From: Podarcis bocagei
Taxonomy: Eukaryota
DNA: 64,000 nt
Strand: one strand, 5' to 3'
NCBI GenBank assembly: GCA_964188305.1
Contig: OZ076901.1
Under the pieces are notes generated by a model, which saw nothing but the letters and a program-made list of their open reading frames with translations, did no database searches and was not told the origin of the DNA. Below are positions 1,382-62,321 of the stretch, piece by piece; position 1 is the first letter of the stretch, and every line of letters begins with the position of its first letter. Both the position numbers and the translations under genes were made by a program.

Positions 1382-1862
1382 TGTCGGGCTTTGGGGAATC
1401 AGATCCCTCCCACGGTGGCAGCAAAAAAGCAGAGAAAAAACAAAGAAGAGTTCTTACCAATTAGTTGATTCAATAACCATAGCGAGAGACAAAAGAATTT
1501 GCTCCAATTAAAGTCCCACCCACTTCTGTCTCCACTATGTCACTCCTGCGTTGGCTAATCTAAGCTTTCTGCCGCTGAGCTCTCTGTTCTACTGCCCTCA
1601 ATGGCTGCCTGGTCCTGGGAGAGGAGGGCGGGTCAGGAATGCTTTCCAAGGACACCGAGTCTGCCAGCTGTCTCTCCCCTGGTGCTGCTGCTTCCCCCTG
1701 CTGTTCTTCTTCCAATATTTCCCAGCTTCTGCCCTCTGCAGCCTTTGAACTATGCCCTTCGGCAAACCACTGTTCTAAACCTATACTGTCCTCCTGTTCT
1801 CGGGAAGGTTCAGGAGTAGGGGGGATGGTCCCCACCATTCCTCCTCAGTCCGGCCCCTGACA
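1382..1862 (-). mobile_element. Solo LTR (Gypsy-type), 481 bp (LTR-B)
   Basis: TGTC...GACA termini; perfect 5-bp TSD GCAGG at 1377-1381 and 1863-1867; purine-rich U3 with a degenerate ORF on the minus strand. Confidence 0.85.
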
Positions 1863-4496: not shown

Positions 4497-4982
4497 TGGG
4501 AATCATTAAGTATTAGTCAGCAGCAATATTATTATCAAGCATGACTGTTTAGGTGGGGTTTATTACTTCCCACAAAGGCATCTTGTTGGCAGCTGTGAGA
4601 GCAGCATGTTACTCTAGAAGGGCTCTTTTTATGTTGTTTATTTCACCTTTGTCCAGCTCTCCAATACCCTTCTTGAAGTACAGTGTCGAGAATCATACAT
4701 AGTATTCAAAATGTGGCTGCACCATAGATTGGTATGAAGGCATTATCATTTTGGCAGCTTTACTTTCAATCCCCTTCCCAGTCATCCTTAACATTGGGTT
4801 GTAACCAATGTAGCACTGAGCAACACATTCCCATACCTTTCAAGGTTCCCGATTTCCCTGGGACATTCCTGGAATTACAGAAGCCATCCTGTCTTCTGAT
4901 TTGATCCTAGAATGCCCCCCTTTCTGCTCCAACATCACCATTCCACTCGGAGAAGAGGGTGAGCTGGTGCTTGCAGTGGAAC

Positions 4983-5585
4983 TGTGCTGGTCCCGGGGGG
5001 GGGGTACCGTGAGGCGTGGTCAGAGTCCGATCCTGGGTCGAGAGTCTGGAGACTATCCACCAATGGTGAAGCAGGGTCCAAAGCAAGAAGCCGGGTGTGG
5101 ACGGGAACTCCGGAAGAACAGGTCTGGGTGCTGGCAGAAACAGGTTTCCAACGACGTTGCTCCCGCAACCTGGGACTGGGCTGACTGGCCTTTATCTCCT
5201 CTGAGGCCATGGGCAGTCCCAGCCCACAGGTGACCCACCTCTCCTGGCCTTAAGGCGAGCACTCCTCCTGAGAGAACCCAGTTCCCTCCGCCTCTCTGCT
5301 CTGAGCCTCTGCAGCTCAGGAGAGGCTGGAGGGTTACTGGACCCAGGGGCAGCTTCACCTTCCCCTGACAGGGCTGGGAGAGGCGCACCTGCAGGCAATG
5401 GGTCCTCAACCACCTCTGGAGCCAGAGTAGATTCACCTGGTGCCTGCTCCTGAGGATCCGGCACACGTGCAGCCCCTTCAGATTCAAGGCCCTGCCCCGG
5501 CTCAGCCGGCCCTGGAGGCGGGGACTCCTGTGCAGGCTGGGATTCCTCCGGTTTAGCCTCTGAATCAGATTCCCAGGCCATCACA
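4983..5585 (-). mobile_element. Solo LTR (Gypsy-type), about 600 bp (LTR-A)
   Basis: TGTGCTGG...CCATCACA termini; TGTGC at 4983-4987 is repeated at 5586-5590, so it is either the TSD (LTR = 4988-5585) or a TSD collapsed with the LTR tip; TATA-like GATAAAGG on minus near 5190. Confidence 0.8.
5192..5581 (-). CDS. Putative LTR U3-encoded 129-aa acidic/Pro-rich peptide with Arg-rich RRSARL tail (expression unproven)
   Basis: ATG at LTR nt 5; frame stays open across U3 and stops inside the TATA-like element: MAWESDSEAKPEES...NPPASPELQRLRAERRRELGSLRRSARLKARRG. Confidence 0.4.
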   Translation of the reverse strand: MAWESDSEAKPEESQPAQESPPPGPAEPGQGLESEGAARVPDPQEQAPGESTLAPEVVEDPLPAGAPLPALSGEGEAAPGSSNPPASPELQRLRAERRRELGSLRRSARLKARRGGSPVGWDCPWPQRR

Positions 5586-5671
5586 TGTGCTTTCATGCAA
5601 GTCCACTAGCTCCCCCAAGAGTGTGGAACCCTGTGCTCTAATGTGAGCCAGTTAACTTGTGTGGCAGCACA

Positions 5672-14234: not shown

Positions 14235-14450
14235 TACATCCTTGGAGATGTAATGGGTCTACACAGAGTAGAGCTTCATTGTCCACTACTCTTTTTTTGT
14301 ATATACTAAGGTCTGTCATGTCTTCTTGAGTTACTCGCCAACTCAGCCTATACATGACCCCTACCAACCCCAAATCCTCCCTTTATACCCCACCCAAACC
14401 CCCATCCCCTCACAGCTCCTTCAAGTCTCCCATCCTCCAGTTTCTTCCCT

Positions 14451-14566
14451 GCTCCTTCAGCCCTCCACAGCTCCTTCAACCTGCCACTGGCGGAGGAAGA
14501 GGAGTGCAGGGGGAGCGCACGGCCCACGGCAGCGCGATCCCAGTGGGGTGCCATCACGGTTGCCCC
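14451..14566 (+). repeat. 116-bp direct duplication flanking the copia element, copy 1 (copy 2 = 17635-17750)
   Basis: gctccttcagccctccacag...ccatcacggttgcccc appears identical at both sites (offset 3184). Confidence 0.95.
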
Positions 14567-14950
14567 TGTGGGAGTTGGAACTTAACTGGTTAAGTTGTTC
14601 CCATGATGCCTCACCATTCTGACGTCAGCTGTAGAAGCTGGGAGGAGTTTTGGGAGGAGTTTGTCAGTCCCACTGTGTACTTTGTGGGGAAAAGACGTGG
14701 TCTTGGTATGGCTGCTAATAGTCCTGGAAATTCCTGAGAAATGTTGGAATAAATGCTGTATATAGACAAACGGGACTCTGTGTGTTTGTCTGGAAGCTGA
14801 ACCAGGCCGGTGACAGTTTTACACCGCTGTGCGAAGCTCTGCTGAGTCGTGACGGAGAGAAGCTGGAGTGGAAGCATGCCGGGCAGCAATAAACCGCTAA
14901 TCGAGGTTTGTAAATCAATTAGCGGGGGTCACGGCCAATAAAATAGCACA
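14567..14950 (+). repeat. copia 5' LTR, 384 bp
   Basis: TGTGGGAG...TAGCACA; TATATA near 14759; AATAAA at 14888 and 14937. Confidence 0.92.
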
Positions 14951-14964
14951 GGTTATGGATCATC
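14951..14964 (+). promoter_or_regulatory. Degenerate primer-binding site, copia half-tRNAiMet type
   Basis: GGTTATGGATCATC directly after the LTR CA, compared with canonical copia GGTTATGGGCCCAG (first 8 nt match). Confidence 0.65.
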
Positions 14965-15686
14965 ATCGCTTGTAAAACTGTCACGGAAGATACTGCCGGG
15001 AGCTTTGATCTGCGGTGTCGAGCAGGGGGCCGGCAGGAGGCGGAAGGACTTTTTGCCTGGTGTTAAGAGGCAAAGGAGCAGCTGCGGAGTTTGAAAGCAG
15101 CTGGCTGCAAAACGCAGAGAGTGCCTGTGTTGCGAGAAAAGCCAGAGGAGCTGAGAGCAGCAGGGAATCGTTTCTCCGGACGGGTGCTGGATGAGCTGGT
15201 GATCTTGTGAGTACAGCTTGGGGCCCCTTGGGAGAACGGAAAAGGATGGCAGGCTGCCAGGTCTTGGAGGACTGTGGGAGGCTCACTTTAAGAAGTTGGG
15301 CAACCTGGCTGCTGATCTAAAGTCTACTGTTCTGGGTGCCAGGAAGCCAGAGGCCGTTCAGCGCTTCAGGGTGTTTGTGAGGCTGGAGGCGGAAAGCAAG
15401 GGCCGGGAGATGGCTGCTTCAGAACAGAAAGACAAGATGGCGCTGATCACCTATGTGAGAGCCGGTGCACAGCTGGGAAAGGCTGTGGGCCCCAGAGGGG
15501 GGGCAAAGGGACTATTGGCACTTGGAAATGTACTGCTGTGTTTGCTGTGAAGCTTCAGCAGGAGGCCAGAGCCCTGGAGAAGGAATACAAAAGCCTAAAG
15601 ATGGCTGGAGCCCCTGTTCCTGGTGATTTAGCCTCAAGGAGTGCTAGTGAGCATGTCGGGGGGGGCGGAAAGTTCCAAAGGCAAGT

Positions 15687-17255
15687 TTGAAAAGTTTTCC
15701 ACTGAACCTGCTGGAGCGAAGAGCAGCTTCAGGGGGGGCGAGGCTGGTGGGAGGCGCCGTTCCAGAAGGAGGAAGGCCAAGCCAGCTGGGAGCCCCGAGC
15801 AGTGTTTTTCCACTGGAGTTCAACGTCTGCGTGGCAGATTGCCCCCACCGGAGCAGAGAGACAAGACAGGATGTTGCCAAGGTCAACAAACTGCTGAATT
15901 CTCATGGGAACCAGTCGGGTTTCCATGGCAACTGGTCTGGAAAAACAACCAGGCGTGAGACTGAGGCTGGTGGACGTGCCAGGTGCCAGCAAGAGACTCG
16001 TGGGACAAGGCCAGAGCAGAGTGTTGTTATTGGCTCTGCTGCTAATTGCAATTTGATCCCAGAGACATCTGCTGGGAAGCTGCGGAAATGCAGGGCTGTT
16101 TTGACAGGGATGACTGTTAGGTTCACAGACGGAACACAAAAATCAGTCTGTGGTGTGGTGGCTAACGTGTTCTTTTCTTTCCAGGAGGAGCAAAAGTTCA
16201 ACGTTGTGCCGGGACTGAAGCGTTGTCTTTTATCTGTATCAGCTCTAAAGAAGCAGGGATACAATGCTCGTTTTGAAAATGACACCTGTTCCATTTTCAG
16301 AGGAGGGAGACAACGGGTCAACGTGCAGAGGGAGAACAACGTCTTTGTTCTGGAGACACCTCTGGAGGGTTGTGGGAATGCTGGAAAAGCACGGGTGCAG
16401 TGTGCTAAGGTTCCCAGTCATGTGCAAAAGTTGCACAGGTGCACAAAAAGGTGTAAAATCACACAATGTGGGAGGTCCCAAGGGTACAGGGCATGCAAGG
16501 GTGCAAAGGTGCTTGGTTTTCCCGGGTTTGGGAGGGTAACCAAAGAGCCCTTTGAGTTTGTTCTCACAGATCCGTCAGGACCCAAGAGGTCTGAGAGTCT
16601 GGGTGAGGCCAGGTATGTGCTGTCGCTGACAGGTGACCACAGCCAGGTTGGCTGGTGTTTCTCTCTCAAATCACAGGGGGAGGTGACGCAACTGATCCAG
16701 GAATGGGTTGCGGGGGTGGAACGAAGGTTCTCCACCAGGGTGCAAAGGTTCAAGAGCGACCGAGGGTCACAGTTTACTGGGTCTGCTCTGGAGAAGTTTT
16801 TCAAGGAAAAGGGAATACGTCACCAGGTGACGGGTGCAAAGTCTCCTCAAGGGGAGGAGAGGGAGGCAGAGACTGATCCCGATGACGGGGACCAGGTCCA
16901 GAATCAGGGTTCAGATCCCGGTGATGGGGACCAGGTCCAGGGTCAGGGGTCAGGGCAGGTTTGGGCATCTCCAAGGGTTATGAAAGGAGTGTCCAGGTGT
17001 GAGGCTTCATCTCCGGTAATGGAGAAAGCTCACGGATGGGTTGTCAAGTCAGAGGGGGAAAGGTCTGACGGAGAAGACACAACTGCTGACCCTAATGGGT
17101 CAGTAGGGTATCAGGTCACAGGTGCGTGGAAAAGTGTCGCACAGTGTGATTCTGGGAGTGTTGAAGGGGTTCAACAGGTGCCTGGGAAAGATGCCGGGAA
17201 GGGGCACAAGGCAAAGGGGAAGGTGTTGAACTCAGAGGGTCTTGTCAGAATGTGA
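15687..17255 (+). pseudogene. Degenerate copia polyprotein ORF, 522 aa: dead protease, integrase core, low-complexity tail; no RT
   Basis: SVVIGSAANCNL (DSG lost); EPFEFVLTDPSGPKRSESLGEARY...KSDRGSQF...KEKGIRHQVTGAKSPQ matches the copia rve core; no YxDD. Confidence 0.85.
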
Positions 17256-17258
17256 TGC

Positions 17259-17267
17259 AAGAGGGGG
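17259..17267 (+). promoter_or_regulatory. Polypurine tract
   Basis: AAGAGGGGG directly before the TG of the 3' LTR. Confidence 0.85.
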
Positions 17268-17636
17268 TGTGGGAGTTGGAACTTAACTGGTTAAGTTGTT
17301 CCCATGATGCCTCACCATTCTGACGTCAGCTGTAGAAGCTGGGAGGAGTTTTGGGAGGAGTTTGTCAGTCCCACTTTGAACTTTGTGGGGAAAAGACGTG
17401 GTCTTGGTATGGCTGCTAATAGTCCTGGAAATTCCTGAGAAATGTTGGAATAAATGCTGTATATAGACAAACGGGACTCTGTGTGTTTGTCTGGAAGCTG
17501 AACCAGGCCGGTGACAGTTTTACACCGCTGTGCGAAGCTCTGCTGAGTCGTGACGGAGAGAAGCTGGAGTGGAAGCGTGCCGGGCAGCAATAAACCGCTA
17601 ATCGAGGTTTGTAAATCAATTAGCGGGGGTCACGGC
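17268..17636 (+). repeat. copia 3' LTR, missing its terminal 15 bp
   Basis: Matches 14567-14935; CAATAAAATAGCACA is absent. Confidence 0.92.
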
Positions 17637-17668
17637 TCCTTCAGCCCTCCACAGCTCCTTCAACCTGC

Positions 17669-17866
17669 CACTGGCGGAGGAAGAGGAGTGCAGGGGGAGC
17701 GCACGGCCCACGGCAGCGCGATCCCAGTGGGGTGCCATCACGGTTGCCCCCTGCCCACGCTGGGCACCACGTCCCCAGGACGCGTGCCACATCCCTGTGG
17801 GTGGAGCACCATGCCCCCGGGACTGCTCTCCACCCCCCAGTGTCGGAGCATGAAGCTCCGCCATTG
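17669..17866 (+). mobile_element. hAT-type MITE, the target of the copia insertion; its first 82 bp are duplicated at 14485-14566
   Basis: TIRs CACTGGCGGAG / CTCCGCCATTG; 8-bp TSD CAACCTGC vs CACCCTGC (7/8). Confidence 0.8.
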
Positions 17867-28488: not shown

Positions 28489-28921
28489 TGTCAGGGAACT
28501 GCCATCAGAGCCAGAGGGAGAGGGAGGGCTCCAGAGGGATTCCGGAGAGCGTGCCAGGAGGGAGAGAAGCAGCACATCTTCTGGGGAAGGAAATCAGCGT
28601 AACACCAGTGGAGAAGGGGGGCAGATGGGGGAATCGGCGAGGTGGCTCCGAGACTCTTCGCCGGGAACCAGTGGGGAGAGCCCGGGTCCTCCGATGCCCA
28701 CACCCTCCGTGCACAGAAGGCTTCCGCGCAGGGAGGCTAGGAGGAGACTAAGCGTCAAAGAGCTTCTTTGCTGGAAGAAGTTCAAGAAACACCCACTAAC
28801 GGATTCTGCCAGCGATTGAGACAGTCACGGGCGCGTGGCTGTCCAGACAGAAAGGGTTCATACAGGCAACCAGCCAAGAGTGGTGTTGATTTACACACAA
28901 GCAACCCCTAGAACTAATACA
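28489..28921 (+). repeat. Gypsy 5' LTR, 433 bp (LTR-C)
   Basis: TGTCAGGG...CCCTAGAACTAATACA; end inferred from the 3' LTR remnant plus TSD (alternative end near 28942). Confidence 0.7.
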
Positions 28922-28974
28922 GGAATCCGTTAGTCCCTGATGTTGCTTGTGCGTAGCCCCAGAGAGGCAGCAAG

Positions 28975-30000
28975 ATGAGCCAAACAGGGGCAGCCGAAGA
29001 GACGGAGCAGCCAGCTGCAGTGCAGAGTCTGGTAGAGAGGAACCGAGACTTGCTGATGCATGTAGCTATCCTGACGGCGCGGCTGGAGGAAAGACGGGCT
29101 CAGGATGCACAGGTCAGAGCCACCCCCATCGCAAGGAAGGTACCGGGGCTGGTACACAAATTTGGGGGGAAGCCCCAAGGCTGCAATGCTTTCCAAACGG
29201 AAGTGCAGTATGCTTTGGAGCTGCAAAAAAATGACTTTGCTGGTAATGGGGAGAGGGTGGCGTACATCGTGGGGCATCTGTAGGATGAAGCGAGAGAATG
29301 GATCAGGCCCTTAATGGCGGCGCAAAATGATGCCTTGAAGGACCTTAATAAATTCCTTCAGGGAATGGACACGATGTTCTCCAGCGATGTGGGGCAAAGC
29401 GTGACACGGTGGGAACTGATGGGGTGCAAGCAGGGGAGCCAGTCCGTCAGAAGCTACTGGTCGCGTTTTGCAATGTTAGTACACCGGCTTGGGTGGGATC
29501 TGGACTCTGAACTGATATAAATGTTGTTTGAGGCGGGTCTTTCCCCCGAAGTGAAAGACGAGTTGTCCCGAGCGCCCCGCCCACGGTCGATGGATGAGCT
29601 CACAAAGGTGGTCCTCTCGATAGGTGTACGCCAAGAAGCGCGGGCTCTGGAGAAGCGGGAAATGAGAGGGGAACGTTTCCATGACTACCGTATTCCTGAG
29701 ATACCGAGGGAGCCTCCCCAGCCAGCAGAGCCAATGGAAATTGATGGCGCGCGCACGCACGAGGTTTCAAACTCCCATGAAGGTCGTAAAAGGGAGGGAA
29801 AGGACTGGAAAACTACCAAGAAGTGTTTCCTCTGTGAACGACCGGGACATTTTGCTAAGGTCTGCCCTCAAAGGAAAGCATGGCAAGGGATGGTGGGGGC
29901 TGCAGGCCACAACGACAAGGGGGAGGAAGAGCAGGCACAGGGAAATGACAACGCCTGGCTGCCAACCAGCAGGGGCTGCAGCCAGGCCAGCAACCAATAG
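28975..30000 (+). pseudogene. gag: gag with two in-frame stops (29281, 29518)
   Basis: Single frame MSQTGAAEE...KFGGKPQGCNAF...FEAGLSPEVKDEL...EPMEIDG...CFLCERPGHFAKVCP. Confidence 0.9.
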
Positions 30001-30012
30001 AAGTGCCCCAGC
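29940..30012 (+). promoter_or_regulatory. -1 ribosomal frameshift signal: slippery heptamer plus stem/pseudoknot
   Basis: G GGA AAT in gag phase, 6-nt spacer, perfect 10-bp stem 29953-29962/29978-29987; loop GGGGC can pair with GCCCC at 30005-30009; pol lies in the -1 frame. Confidence 0.8.
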
Positions 30013-31485
30013 CTGACCCCCCCAAGGCAGCTATAGCCATAGAAGTGGTGCTAGAACTCCCGAATGGGCACCCTGTCAAGGTTGAGGGACTGCTGGATTC
30101 GGGCAGCTTGTGTAATTTCTTCAGCAGAGATTTTGCTCTGGAGCACCAACTCCACCTGTTGCCTCTGGATTTTCCCTTGCAGGTGACAACCATCGATGGC
30201 AGGGAACTTCTGGGAGGGGAAGTGACACACCAGACCCCGCCAATGCGAATGAGGGTTTCCAGGCACACGAAGACCATTGCCTTTCACGTGGCCACACTGG
30301 CAGGACCCCCAATAATACTGGGAATGAGCTGGCTGGCACTGCATGATCCAGTAGTGTCATGGCATCAGTGGTCAGTCACCTTTGGGTCAGCTTACTGCTT
30401 TGAACACTCTGGGAGGGGAGAACTCGAGAATGACAGTAGCCAGGGTGGCTGGGCTGGCCGTGGAACAACAAGGGGAGGTGCCACCGCGATATGCTGATCT
30501 GAAGGAGGTCTTCAGCGAGAGGGAGGCAGATAGACTACCCCCCCCACAGGCCCTTTGACTGCCAAATCAACCTACTCCCAGGGGCTCAGCTTGCCGGTGG
30601 GTAAGCTGTACGCCATGTCAGTGGGGGCAGTCCCGTGTTCTTTGTAGACAAAAAGGGGACCAATCAGCCCAGGCTGATCGTAAATTATAGGGCCTTGAAC
30701 CTGGTGTCTGAACCCGTGACCTTCCCAATGCCAAGGATTGATGACATTTTAACCCAGGTGAGGCAGGGGAAGATTTTTACCAAGCTGGACCTCAGGGGGG
30801 CGTACAATTTAATTAGGGTAAGGGAGGGGGGCGAATGGAAAATGACCATGTTCACCCCCCTGGGGGCCTTTGAGTACTTAGTCATGCCATTTGGATTACA
30901 ATCGGGCTCCGCCTGTTTTCAAGCATTCATGCACCACGTGTTGGGGCCCCGCTGTACAAGAATTGCGTAGCCTTTTTGGATGACGTCTTAATCTACTCGA
31001 ACAATGAGAAGCAACACGTCAGAGACGTCAGGGAAGTGCTACAGAGACTGCAGAAGAATCAATTGTGGGTCAAGCTGGAAAAATGCCAATTTCACGTCAG
31101 GGAGGTCGAGTTTCTGGGATACAAGTTGTCAGACAAGGGCCTAGCTATGGACCCAGGCAAGGTGTAGGCAGTGCTGGAATGGAAAGCCCCCCAAACCCGG
31201 AAGGATGTGCAAAGGTTCTTAGGCTTCAGCAACTTCTACAGGAAGTTCATAAAGAACTTTGCTCACTTGACAGCGCCCATAACGGATTGTCTCAGTAGCA
31301 AAAAGAAATTCACGTGGACAGAAAGTGCCCGGCAATCCTTTGAAAGGCTGAAGAAGGTGTTCGTTTCAGAAGAGCAGCTCCTGCACGTTGATCTGGAGAA
31401 GCCCATGAGACTGGAGACGGACGCGTCCGACCGAGCTGTGGGGGCGGTCCTTTTGCAGCCCGGGGCTAAGCAGGACTGGAGGCTG
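29949..31485 (+). pseudogene. pol: pol (protease-RT-RNase H), frameshifted, internally deleted and truncated
   Basis: LLDSGSLCNF (PR); FFVDKK..PRLIVNYRALN, KLDLRGAYNLIRV, YLVMPFGL, FLDDVLIYS (RT); ETDASDRAVGAVLLQ (RNase H). Confidence 0.92.
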
Positions 31486-50220: not shown

Positions 50221-52582
50221 TCTCTTGTATATAGTTTTGCCTAATATACTTATTTTTGCAAGCAACTTCCCTACTATGATGCATCTTTATATGTGCCCCC
50301 CCCCCAATATAAGCATTTCTATGCACACTCCAGACTAGTATATATATACTTGTACATATTACTTGGATGGAGAACTGCCCTGCAAAATTCAGAGAAGTGC
50401 AGCTTCCATAGAATGACTGCAGATTGGTTTAGGTATTGTTTCAGGAAGTGCAAATTATGTAGTTTCACCTTTCAGTGTGAAATGTATTGAATTTCTCCTC
50501 CATGCTTACCAGGGAACAAATAAATTTGTTTCGGGGGCTGGTTCCATGCAGTGTGCTCCCATCTGGTGATCCTCAGCACAGGTCAGGTGAGGCAGAATTT
50601 ACATGACTGGTTGGCTTGCATGAAACATAGAGGTGCTTTTAAAATGGAATTGCCCCTTACGGGACAAACTGGGTACATCTTGAAGTAAGTAAATGAATAA
50701 ACCCATCTTGGACCTAATCTAATTAAGTATCTTGTGTTGTTGTTTGTGTGGCTCATTCATTTCTCTCTCCTCTTTCCCTCTCTTGTAACCAGCTGTGACC
50801 TAGAGGTTGCTTGTTGTATTATAAAAAGGGTTTTTTCTGTCTGTGTTGTACAAGCAGGAATAAGGGAGGCAGGAATGAGCACATTGTCTCCCTGCTAATT
50901 AAAAAAGATGCCTGGAGGTTAGCCTCTCTCACACTCGGGAAACCGAAAAACAGAGTGATGAACCCCATTTCAAAGTGGAATAATAATAAAAAGTGTGTTT
51001 TGAATTTCAAAGGAACTCATAATTATTGGAAGGACCAGTGCTTATGGCACACCTGATGCATACGAAGCCCTGGTGTCACAGATGGTGAAAGTTTCCAATG
51101 GTAAGAAGGTCTTTACAAGCAGGTTAGAGGGATGGTGATAAAACAACACCATGGAGGTAAATCAAAGCAAATCCTCTATTTTATTTTATTTCTTATTTCT
51201 TTCCTATTGAACCATCTTTATGCCTCAGTACCTCAACATCTTCTGGACCACCTCTCCTGATATGAACCTCTTCTACCTTTAGATCATCACCCGAGGTCTT
51301 TCTTTAGGAAGATGATGGCAAGGGAGGGCATTTTTAGTTGTGAAATCCCCATCTGTGGAATGTTCTCCCCAGTGAGACCTACCTGGTGCCTTCAGTGATG
51401 TATTTTTGGTGCCAGGTAAAACATTACCTCCCTCCCCCCCAGGTTTTTGTTGGACTATGATGGTGATGTTTGCTGGTAGTTGTGCTGCATAAGCTTTCTG
51501 GCGCTGTTATTGGGGGTTACTTGTGTGTGTTTTTTATGAACTGAATATGTTTCTGTGTAAATGTTTTTTCTGTAAATGTGTTTTTTATTATAATGTATTT
51601 TTTTACTTATGTTCTTAAATATGTTGCAAGTCGCTCGGAGACCTTTTTGTGTAGCGAGTGACTAACAGCTTCAAATAGTGATGATGATTGACATCTTCAA
51701 ATATCTCAAAGGCTGTCACCTAGGCAATGGAACAGTAGCTAATGGGCTCAAATTACAAGAAAGGGAATATCAGCTAAATATTAAGTAGCTCCTGAGGGTA
51801 CAAATTGTTGGACGGTGAGACAGACTGCCTCAGAAGGGGGGCGTCCCTCAGTGGCCTTTCCTTCATTAGAGGTGTGCAAGCCGATCTCGAAGATCAACCT
51901 CAAGCATGCTAATGCAGCAGATGGACCCAATGGTGTTTGAGGTCTGTCTGTCTATCCACTTATCCATGATCAACATGAAGGGTTGACGTTGTTGGGGGAA
52001 AATTGGGACACCTGCTGGAGCATCTGTGCCACGTTGATCTCACATCCACATTGCCACACCTCCTCTCCAGCCCAGGATGAAGCAGTGACTCAGCAAGAGG
52101 GAGTTCAGGGAAGCAGTGTAGTCCCACCACACTGTCCATTGTTCATACCTACAAAGATTCTGATCTCTCTCTCATCCCACCGCCTGAGCCTCATGACACT
52201 TCTGCTCCACTTCAATGCTGTCTTGAACAGTAGATACTTAGTTTGTCTTTATTTATCTTTGCTGCAAAATAAAGTGGATGGAATGGGGAGGAACTATCAT
52301 GTTGTGTTCAATCAACTGGGTCTGGTGCTCTCTCTCATACAGTGGTCAGCTTGCAAGCAGAACAGTGGTGAGGAGAGATGTCCACCATGCCTCTTTCTTG
52401 TGCCCTGGAGACAGTCAAGTCAACATCTGTTGACCAAGAGGGGAGGGCCAAAACTGATACCTTCAAATTACATGACAGGGGATTTCAGGTAACTATTAGG
52501 GAGCACTTTTCGACTGAGTTCTTTGACAGTGGAACAGACTGTCTTGAGGTTGGTGGACCATCCTTCATTACAGACTTTCATA

Positions 52583-52758
52583 GTAAAAAATTAAAACATA
52601 GTCCAGTAGCGCCTTAGAGACCAACTAAGTTTGTTCTAGGTATAAGCTTTCATGTGCATACCTAGAATGAACTTAGTTGGTCTCTAAGGTGCTATTGGAC
52701 TATTTTTTATTTTTTTATTTTGACTGCATCAGACCAACACTGCTACCTACCTGAATCT
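52583..52758 (-). mobile_element. Penelope-like palindromic terminal remnant inside a CR1 fragment
   Basis: Inverted arms gtagcgccttagagaccaactaag / cttagttggtctctaaggtgcta; TSD AGACTTTCATA at 52572-52582 and 52759-52769; homologous to 61888-62081. Confidence 0.75.
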
Positions 52759-61887: not shown

Positions 61888-62081
61888 CAGATAGGTAGCC
61901 GTGTTGGTCTGCCATAGTCAAAATAAAAAAAATTCCTTCCTGTAGCACCTTAAAGACCAACTAAGTTAGTTCTTGGTATAAGCTTTCGTGTGTATCTGAA
62001 GAAGTGTGCATGCACACGAAAGCTTATACCAAGAACTAACTTAGTTGGTCTTTAAGGTGCTACAGGAAGGAATTTTTTTTA
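61888..62081 (+). mobile_element. Penelope-like palindromic terminal remnant
   Basis: Perfect 68-bp inverted arms 61925-61992/62013-62080; 12-bp TSD CTTTCCCAGTCT at 61876-61887 and 62082-62093. Confidence 0.8.
61992..62029 (+). ncRNA. Minimal type I hammerhead ribozyme motif
   Basis: GTAT-CTGAAGA-AGTGTGCATGCACAC-GAAA-GCTT-ATAC: CUGANGA and GAAA cores, palindromic stem II, AAGCTT in place of stem III, stem I GTAT/ATAC. Confidence 0.7.
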
Positions 62082-62321
62082 CTTTCCCAGTCTGAAAGTT
62101 AGATATTATGCCCCCAATCCTTAGCCCAGTGGATCAATACAGACTTAACCTGTTCATCCTTTGTATGCCAGGCCCACCTAGCCCAGTATTGTCTACTCTG
62201 ACTGGCAGAAGCTATCCAGGGTCTGAAACTTAAGTCTGCATCAATGAAAGTATAGTGTCCCAATGAAGGGAAGTAATAGTAAACCTGAATGAATCTGACA
62301 GTAAAGTAGTTTACGTTAATA

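Follow-up and report, generated by a model that had tools for sequence, protein, structure and literature searches.

The window, a 64,000-nucleotide stretch of Podarcis bocagei DNA, harbors a solo LTR of a Tf1/sushi-type chromovirus family, denoted as family A, on the minus strand (4983..5585). This LTR is 603 bp in length, is bounded by TG...CA, and is adjoined by neither a polypurine tract (PPT) nor a PBS. The five bases before the LTR are the same as its own last five (GCACA) and the other flank has no match (4978-4990, 5586-5590), which may reflect collapse of the target duplication together with the LTR end.

A frame in U3 (5192..5584, minus strand) opens at LTR nucleotide 2 (t|GTG ATG) and comprises 130 codons from the GTG, or 129 codons from the ATG at 5581 to a TAA at 5194-5192 that lies inside a TATA-like box (GATAAAGG; 5189..5196, minus strand). 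The plus strand of the same stretch is interrupted by stops. A 129-codon frame extending from LTR nucleotide 2 to the TATA-like box had been described in the original prediction, and this description is borne out, with minus as the coding strand. The frame represents the LTR-encoded C-terminal tail of Gag-Pol/integrase and begins with an acidic Pro/Gly-rich linker (residues 1-82; 5336..5581, minus strand) with a net charge of -15 and 25 Pro/Gly residues, the length of which differs among subfamilies by multiples of 3 nt. The linker is followed by a basic terminal module (residues 83-129; 5195..5335, minus strand) of the form NPPASP...ELQRLRAERRREL...RRSARLKARR, with a net charge of +9 and RRR and KARR clusters. 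The module includes RRSARL (5252..5269, minus strand), an HMGN-like motif and predicted acidic-patch anchor, 55-75 nt upstream of the TATA-like box. The succession of an acidic/Pro/Gly stretch and a basic part with RRSARL is thus as predicted. Neither the linker nor the LTR-encoded tail matched a Pfam family, and comparison of the tail to PDB sequences returned chance matches only (E 2.9).

In 5000 dinucleotide shuffles of the window LTR, a stop-free run of 130 codons was present in any frame in 49% and from nucleotide 2 in 3%, and RRS.R[LI] was present in any frame in 0.9% and in this frame in 0.08%. The length of the frame alone is thus not beyond chance; the presence of the motif in the frame is unusual. 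Screening of the genome with the window LTR revealed 2399 first-look candidates, the best 40 of which were scored and exhibit 92-100% identity. The frame extends to the same stop region in 22 of 30 fetched relatives, is cut short by a premature stop in 5, and is frameshifted in 3. Exact RRSARL was identified in 16 of the 27 in-frame relatives, and in 9 of the 11 that do not encode it the CpG codon of the last arginine has changed.

Two other LTRs in the window had been suggested to open in the same phase and to encode the same order of acidic, hinge, and Arg-rich segments, and the shared phase is borne out for one of them. This is the 5' LTR of a family C chromovirus (28489..28921, plus strand), with a frame of 110 codons (28490-28819) that is the tail of family C Pol and ends in RR(E/S)xRRR.SVKELLCW, without RRSARL. 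It is followed by a self-priming-type PBS, complementary to the LTR at 28795, and a broken, 3'-truncated family C gag-pol (28922..31480, plus strand). The second is an old solo LTR of family B (1382..1862, minus strand) with a 5-bp target site duplication (GCAGG), and its frame is broken: a stop is encountered after 26 codons and the acidic-then-basic text resumes in another frame. Thirty fetched relatives of this LTR are about 80% identical and mostly broken, and two LTR-start and purine-tract patterns directed at the family B internal region yielded 2 and 4 matches, all of them host flanks. Broken-frame fragments of family B read PPSPRTRRALRVVEQRAQRQKAQI in several copies, which is an RRxxR-hydrophobic word (cf. 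RRSLRI in Anolis). The window also includes another LTR element (14446-17750) with near-identical repeats at 14446-14866 and 17268-17750 and a degraded copia-like gag/integrase frame at 15651-17255. Two related hairpins (52578-52723 and 61920-62085), with arms of 66-76 nt and a 14-nt spacer, probably represent a small non-autonomous DNA transposon.

Relationship of the LTR Frame to Pol

A family A pattern combining the LTR start and purine tract yielded 415 matches (duplicates included), and those listed are spread along contigs C1-C5; a tighter pattern for the window subfamily yielded 7. Forty stretches of 8 kb around such junctions were fetched, and in 11 of these one uninterrupted frame starts in gag and terminates within the 3' LTR, which contributes 109-115 residues. 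In complete copies, the integrase, chromodomain, PPT, and LTR frame form a single open frame that ends just past RRSARL at the TATA-like box, and the PPT is translated as GRGDG, directly into VMAW. Pfam domains in one natural copy are arranged in the order capsid-PR-RT-RH-IN-SH3-chromodomain, followed by 137 residues without a family. The chromodomain of this copy (PF00385 at 1380-1427, E 8e-15) is at the integrase C-terminus and includes the Y, W, and Y cage residues. The closest named protein among the best 120 of 413 homologs is a Podarcis muralis UniRef entry that is 97% identical over the tail. The frame is not a separate gene but rather the end of integrase, read through the PPT into the 3' LTR. 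Complete copies thereby substantiate the proposal that the frame is a C-terminal extension of Pol/integrase through the PPT, both in the 11 of 40 stretches that are open from gag and in the 24 of 41 distinct family A junctions that are in frame.

In the remaining 17 of the 41 junctions, the LTR frame is out of register with pol owing to changes in the length of a single G run, which precedes the PPT and is the longest homopolymer of the internal region. These frame changes are found on several branches, twice as sister pairs, and may reflect slippage, assembly error, or viable tail-less lineages. The seven junction copies nearest the window LTR, several of them degraded or with internal deletions, include no more than two that are in frame and one that is open as far as the motif. 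The low number of in-frame copies near the window LTR suggests that the tail may be dispensable in cis.

Many family A LTR pairs are 99-100% identical and are flanked by 5-bp target duplications, suggesting that part of the family is young. Gag and pol are in different frames in 6 of 25 full-length family A copies, mostly from older subfamilies (e.g., L065, L068, L069, L073, L080, and L095), and the frame split adjoins a GGGAAAC heptamer that we take to resemble the PEG10 slippery site. In younger bursts, gag and pol are fused in one frame.

Coding inside the 3' LTR is a property of the U3-overlapping retroviral genes nef and MMTV sag, which are separate genes with their own mRNAs; the lizard frame differs in that it is continuous with pol in its modal state. 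Family A shares with the Tf1/sushi group of Ty3/gypsy elements (V-clade Sushi-ichi, Amn) the PR-RT-RH-IN order, a C-terminal chromodomain with three cage aromatics, a self-priming PBS, TG...CA LTRs, and a 5-bp duplication (group features from excerpts of PMC6317226 and PMC3605345). It differs in its LTR-encoded tail of 110-130 residues, since most relatives stop within about 10-45 residues past the chromodomain. In plant CRM group A elements, pol also extends into the 3' LTR, and a targeting CR motif replaces the chromodomain (PMC3059260, PMC3605345, PMC6317226, and PMC12477314, each in excerpt). In contrast, family A, which resides in an animal host, retains its chromodomain upstream of the PPT, with no CR motif in its place, and adds an unrelated short linear motif.

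The chromodomain and LTR frame of family C are continuous in 17 of 19 3' junctions. The LTR-start and purine-tract pattern of this family has 1801 matches in the genome. In the 3' ends of this family (L168-L187), the chromodomain is without the last cage aromatic (WEGEP), a further acidic stretch precedes the PPT, and the terminal module closes on a conserved SVKELLCW(K/R).

Transcription of the Frame and Fate of Solo Copies

In Tf1, the transcript begins at its self-primer target. Among 29 family A copies with a 5' LTR and PBS, 24 share a 10-nt complementarity between the PBS and their own LTR and four a shorter one of 5-8 nt; no complement was found in one. In complete copies, GATAAA precedes the self-primer target by about 30 nt, and family A frames stop in or before the TATA-like box. 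In the window, the self-primer target (5166-5156, minus strand), which marks the inferred start of R and thus of transcription, is downstream of the stop. A self-priming PBS is described as a mark of Tf1/sushi chromoviruses (PMC6317226, in excerpt). Given a frame upstream of the presumed start, the LTR promoter should be unable to transcribe it, and the frame would be present on genomic RNA only as the 3' U3. Solo LTRs thus probably do not express the frame.

The suggestion that the U3 frame could instead encode a separate accessory peptide finds no support, since the stop of the frame precedes the inferred start of transcription by about 30 nt. It might still be argued that the frame also gives a separate small protein from the ATG at LTR nucleotide 5, through reinitiation in out-of-frame copies after the overlapping pol stop or from host transcripts through solo LTRs, which we judge to be highly improbable. 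The ATG has G at -3 and +4, and Met is present at the same place in the junction in Anolis, Rhineura, and two further records, but not in family C and viper elements; moreover, TGTGATG may be just the attachment end for integrase. CRM LTRs typically have TGATG at their ends (PMC3059260, in excerpt). In one out-of-frame class, pol stops at a TGA that overlaps the LTR ATG, and sense reads cover U3 at a depth of 5-30 in two stranded RNA runs, but the inferred start site is downstream of the frame and the anchor codon has changed in mostly solo copies at close to the rate of CpG decay.

This change, scattered over the tree, affects the anchor-arginine codon in 12 of the 33 window-subfamily copies compared, most of which are solo. 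General CpG decay (0.26 per site and copy) is near this value, giving no indication of selection following insertion. A sublineage with Arg-to-His at the anchor was considered and rejected, with its 8 carriers scattered (P=0.92). The notion that solo LTRs scatter expressed HMGN-like mini-ORFs is therefore unsupported, both by the position of the frame upstream of the start and by the decay of the anchor at the CpG rate, and the window solo copy is probably a passive remnant. Four raw RNA runs compared to the 3' end of one complete copy gave a sense depth of 0-5 over integrase and 5-30 over the LTR; flanks at the start of the LTR were mixed, and the depth was too low to reveal a PPT-spanning transcript, the start site, or G-run alleles. 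None of these four low-depth runs lists a splice joint into U3.

Selection on the LTR-Encoded Tail

Among 103 rows representing 78 distinct copies, the distance between the LTR start and the motif falls into three large length classes of 268, 286, and 316 nt that differ by multiples of 3. Indels between subfamilies hence preserve the phase of the frame, as anticipated for a coding sequence in the original prediction. Off-phase classes comprise one or two loci each, and R/U5 length classes are of mixed phase. The length classes of family C (244, 247, 271, 289, and 319) are in one phase. Alignment of the window LTR to two young copies (two of six pairs) revealed gaps of 30 nt, and of 18 plus 30 nt, with changes by codon position of 16/15/27 and 14/7/27, mostly third; R/U5 gaps in the same two pairs are mostly not multiples of 3.

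Pairwise dN/dS values for the tail were 0.17-0.56 (15 pairs), and 0.38-0.66 for the window copy versus six others. Values for integrase were 0.07-0.11 (four valid pairs with the youngest subfamily; L089 values were left out of the comparison due to a frameshift), and the terminal module of family C yielded 0.05-0.15 at a dS of 0.38-0.70 (three pairs). Among the 78 copies and with CpG sites excluded, shared changes comprised 53 nonsynonymous and 36 synonymous changes and private changes comprised 88 and 32, respectively (ratio 0.54, p=0.038). An earlier run had left out 12 of the 78 copies through a motif filter, and the ratio of 0.54 is that of the run without this filter. Inclusion of CpG sites gave a ratio of 0.60 (p=0.076), and the other two frames gave ratios of 1.96 and 2.09. 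The ratio for the basic module alone (0.64-0.90) was not significant (p 0.58-1.0) because its synonymous sites hardly vary either. In keeping with what had been proposed, dN/dS of the tail is below 1 (about 0.4-0.5) and specifically so in this frame, and RRSxRL is present in all subfamilies. Thus, the frame has been kept under purifying selection between subfamilies, with a signal that is modest.

A competing explanation is that pol lost its stop and acquired a largely neutral extension, the letters of which are conserved for a promoter DNA function upstream of the TATA box. Such an explanation would be compatible with a frame whose length is within chance and with the many family A junctions that are out of frame (17/41), but it does not account for the frame-specific synonymous excess and in-frame indels in two families. 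Likewise, the synonymous sites of the motif are also near-invariant and the motif is 55-75 nt upstream of the TATA-like box, as might be expected of promoter DNA, but a neutral extension is at odds with the low dN/dS of the family C module and with the presence of the same peptide in distant hosts with unalignable linkers. We consider this explanation improbable.

A Candidate Nucleosome Anchor at the Integrase C-Terminus

Two homolog searches (best 120 of 413 and best 120 of 388) yielded 235 proteins with a chromodomain anchor. RRS.R[LI] was detected in 10 of the 235 post-chromodomain tails, compared to a mean of 0.18 and a maximum of 2 in 2000 shuffles, and upstream of the tails it was matched 3 times in 168,859 residues. 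The 10 tails represent five lineages only, and the other 225 tails, including those of family C, are without the motif. Podarcis (RRSARL) is among the five lineages. Anolis encodes an acidic linker, which is unalignable, and then RRSARIAAK or RRSLRIAAK, the tail of the frog Leptobrachium encodes RRSPRL, and a Morchella cluster encodes RRSSRL; another record encodes an acidic linker and RRSARL four residues from its end. In a sixth record (1 of 93 examined), RRSARI is located about ten residues beyond the junction. Across hosts, the motif is within 4-27 residues of the C-terminus, and cluster members mostly carry the same motifs as their representatives.

Acidic linkers with other basic ends were identified in an amphisbaenian (KRGRP), two vipers, and a P. 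lilfordi protein. A Gly/Glu-rich segment followed by xV at the protein junction suggests that the tails of the other hosts also lie in their LTRs. Rows with the motif are scattered in a quick protein tree of 55 rows, which includes three long artefactual rows and leaves its deep forks open, and the motif-bearing frog pair nests among frog rows without it. In fish chromovirus integrases (P0053, P0051, P0068, P0103, and P0118), an AT-hook-like RGRP precedes the junction, and the extension is short and ends in SPEF/SPEY.

The lizard RRSARLKA matches 7 of the 8 letters of the HMGN core RRSARLSA. The resemblance to HMGN, Dsup, and Dot5 comprises the RRSAR core, a Ser with three arginines, and a disordered context (PMC12487698 and PMC13347269, in excerpt). 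The lizard motif differs from HMGN in that it ends a retrotransposon polyprotein in a frame continuous with pol and has no HMGN Pfam match. Cryo-EM density of HMGN2 covers just RRSAR, Dsup binds via RRSSRL, and phospho-Ser has been modelled to repel the acidic patch (PMC12487698, in excerpt). Yeast Dot5 binds via RRSARI, with all three arginines required (PMC13347269, in excerpt). Foamy virus Gag and KSHV LANA use an arginine anchor for the acidic patch, which in the case of foamy virus Gag can steer integration (PMC6042332 and PMC5072296, in excerpt). The foamy virus anchor is of another sequence and resides in Gag, whereas the lizard candidate is U3-encoded and resides on integrase next to a chromodomain.

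The lizard, frog, and fungal words fall within the range of HMGN2, Dsup, and Dot5 and foamy virus Gag provides a precedent, and on this basis we regard it as fairly probable that the acidic tail ending in RRSARL is a flexible nucleosome tether on integrase beside the chromodomain. Pol reads through the PPT into the 3' LTR and stops at or just before the TATA box; the tail would be translated only from the 3' LTR on genomic RNA and would stay on mature integrase. By analogy to HMGN2, Dsup, and Dot5, the tail likely binds the acidic patch, with the arginines of RRSARL inserting into the H2A-H2B surface. The chromodomain as methyl-lysine reader and the arginine anchor would then form a two-point tether, and the serine in the motif would permit phospho-control. 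Prediction of a complex of H2A, H2B, and residues 82-120 gave runs scored 0.74, 0.02, and 0.02; AlphaFold 3 also fails on the HMGN2-nucleosome complex (PMC12487698, in excerpt).

Alternatively, the basic end might serve in nuclear localization or general nucleic-acid binding, comparable to the C-terminal NLS of Ty1 integrase (cited in an excerpt of PMC3605345), and the likeness to HMGN would be incidental. The charge of the basic module (net +9) and its RRR and KARR clusters are consistent with such a role, and related families end in other basic words (RRESRRR...KRFR, KRGRP), which suggests that charge outweighs one motif. However, a role in charge only predicts no particular order of residues, and the exact order R-R-S-x-R-[LI] is found in five lineages at 55 times the composition-matched expectation; a Ser in the motif also weakens an NLS. 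An NLS or general binding signal is therefore an unlikely explanation, albeit one with some chance of being correct.

Returning to the tether, we tentatively suggest, at somewhat less than even confidence, that chromoviruses of lizards, a frog, and fungi repeatedly grew an HMGN-type anchor at the end of integrase, in squamates from the U3 promoter region. Together with the chromodomain this would form a dual nucleosome tether, and the G run before the PPT would switch the tail on or off between copies.

Little is known of how vertebrate Ty3/gypsy elements gain access to chromatin and select their sites, and to our knowledge no candidate other than the chromodomain has been put forward so far. 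Extension of pol into the 3' LTR is known from plant chromoviruses; the HMGN-like candidate anchor beside a retained chromodomain is the apparently new part. In listings, abstracts, and excerpts of mainly open literature, PMC12159745 among them, we found no description of HMGN-like motifs in the integrases of retrotransposons, of long tails encoded by the LTRs of reptile chromoviruses, or of a chromodomain together with an LTR-encoded HMGN-like anchor. A study of LTR structure that modelled Sushi LTRs includes no occurrence of 'ORF' or 'open reading frame' (PMC3601003).

The candidate anchor comprises six residues and is of a type just solved for HMGN2 and Dsup, and the proposed tether is thus testable with a peptide and nucleosomes. 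If correct, arginine-anchor tethering as in foamy virus Gag and LANA would extend to retrotransposon integrases, and the small set of HMGN-like motifs outside of HMGN would grow. Thousands of reptile LTRs annotated as non-coding have a coding history, which bears on rates of LTR evolution and on spurious gene models.
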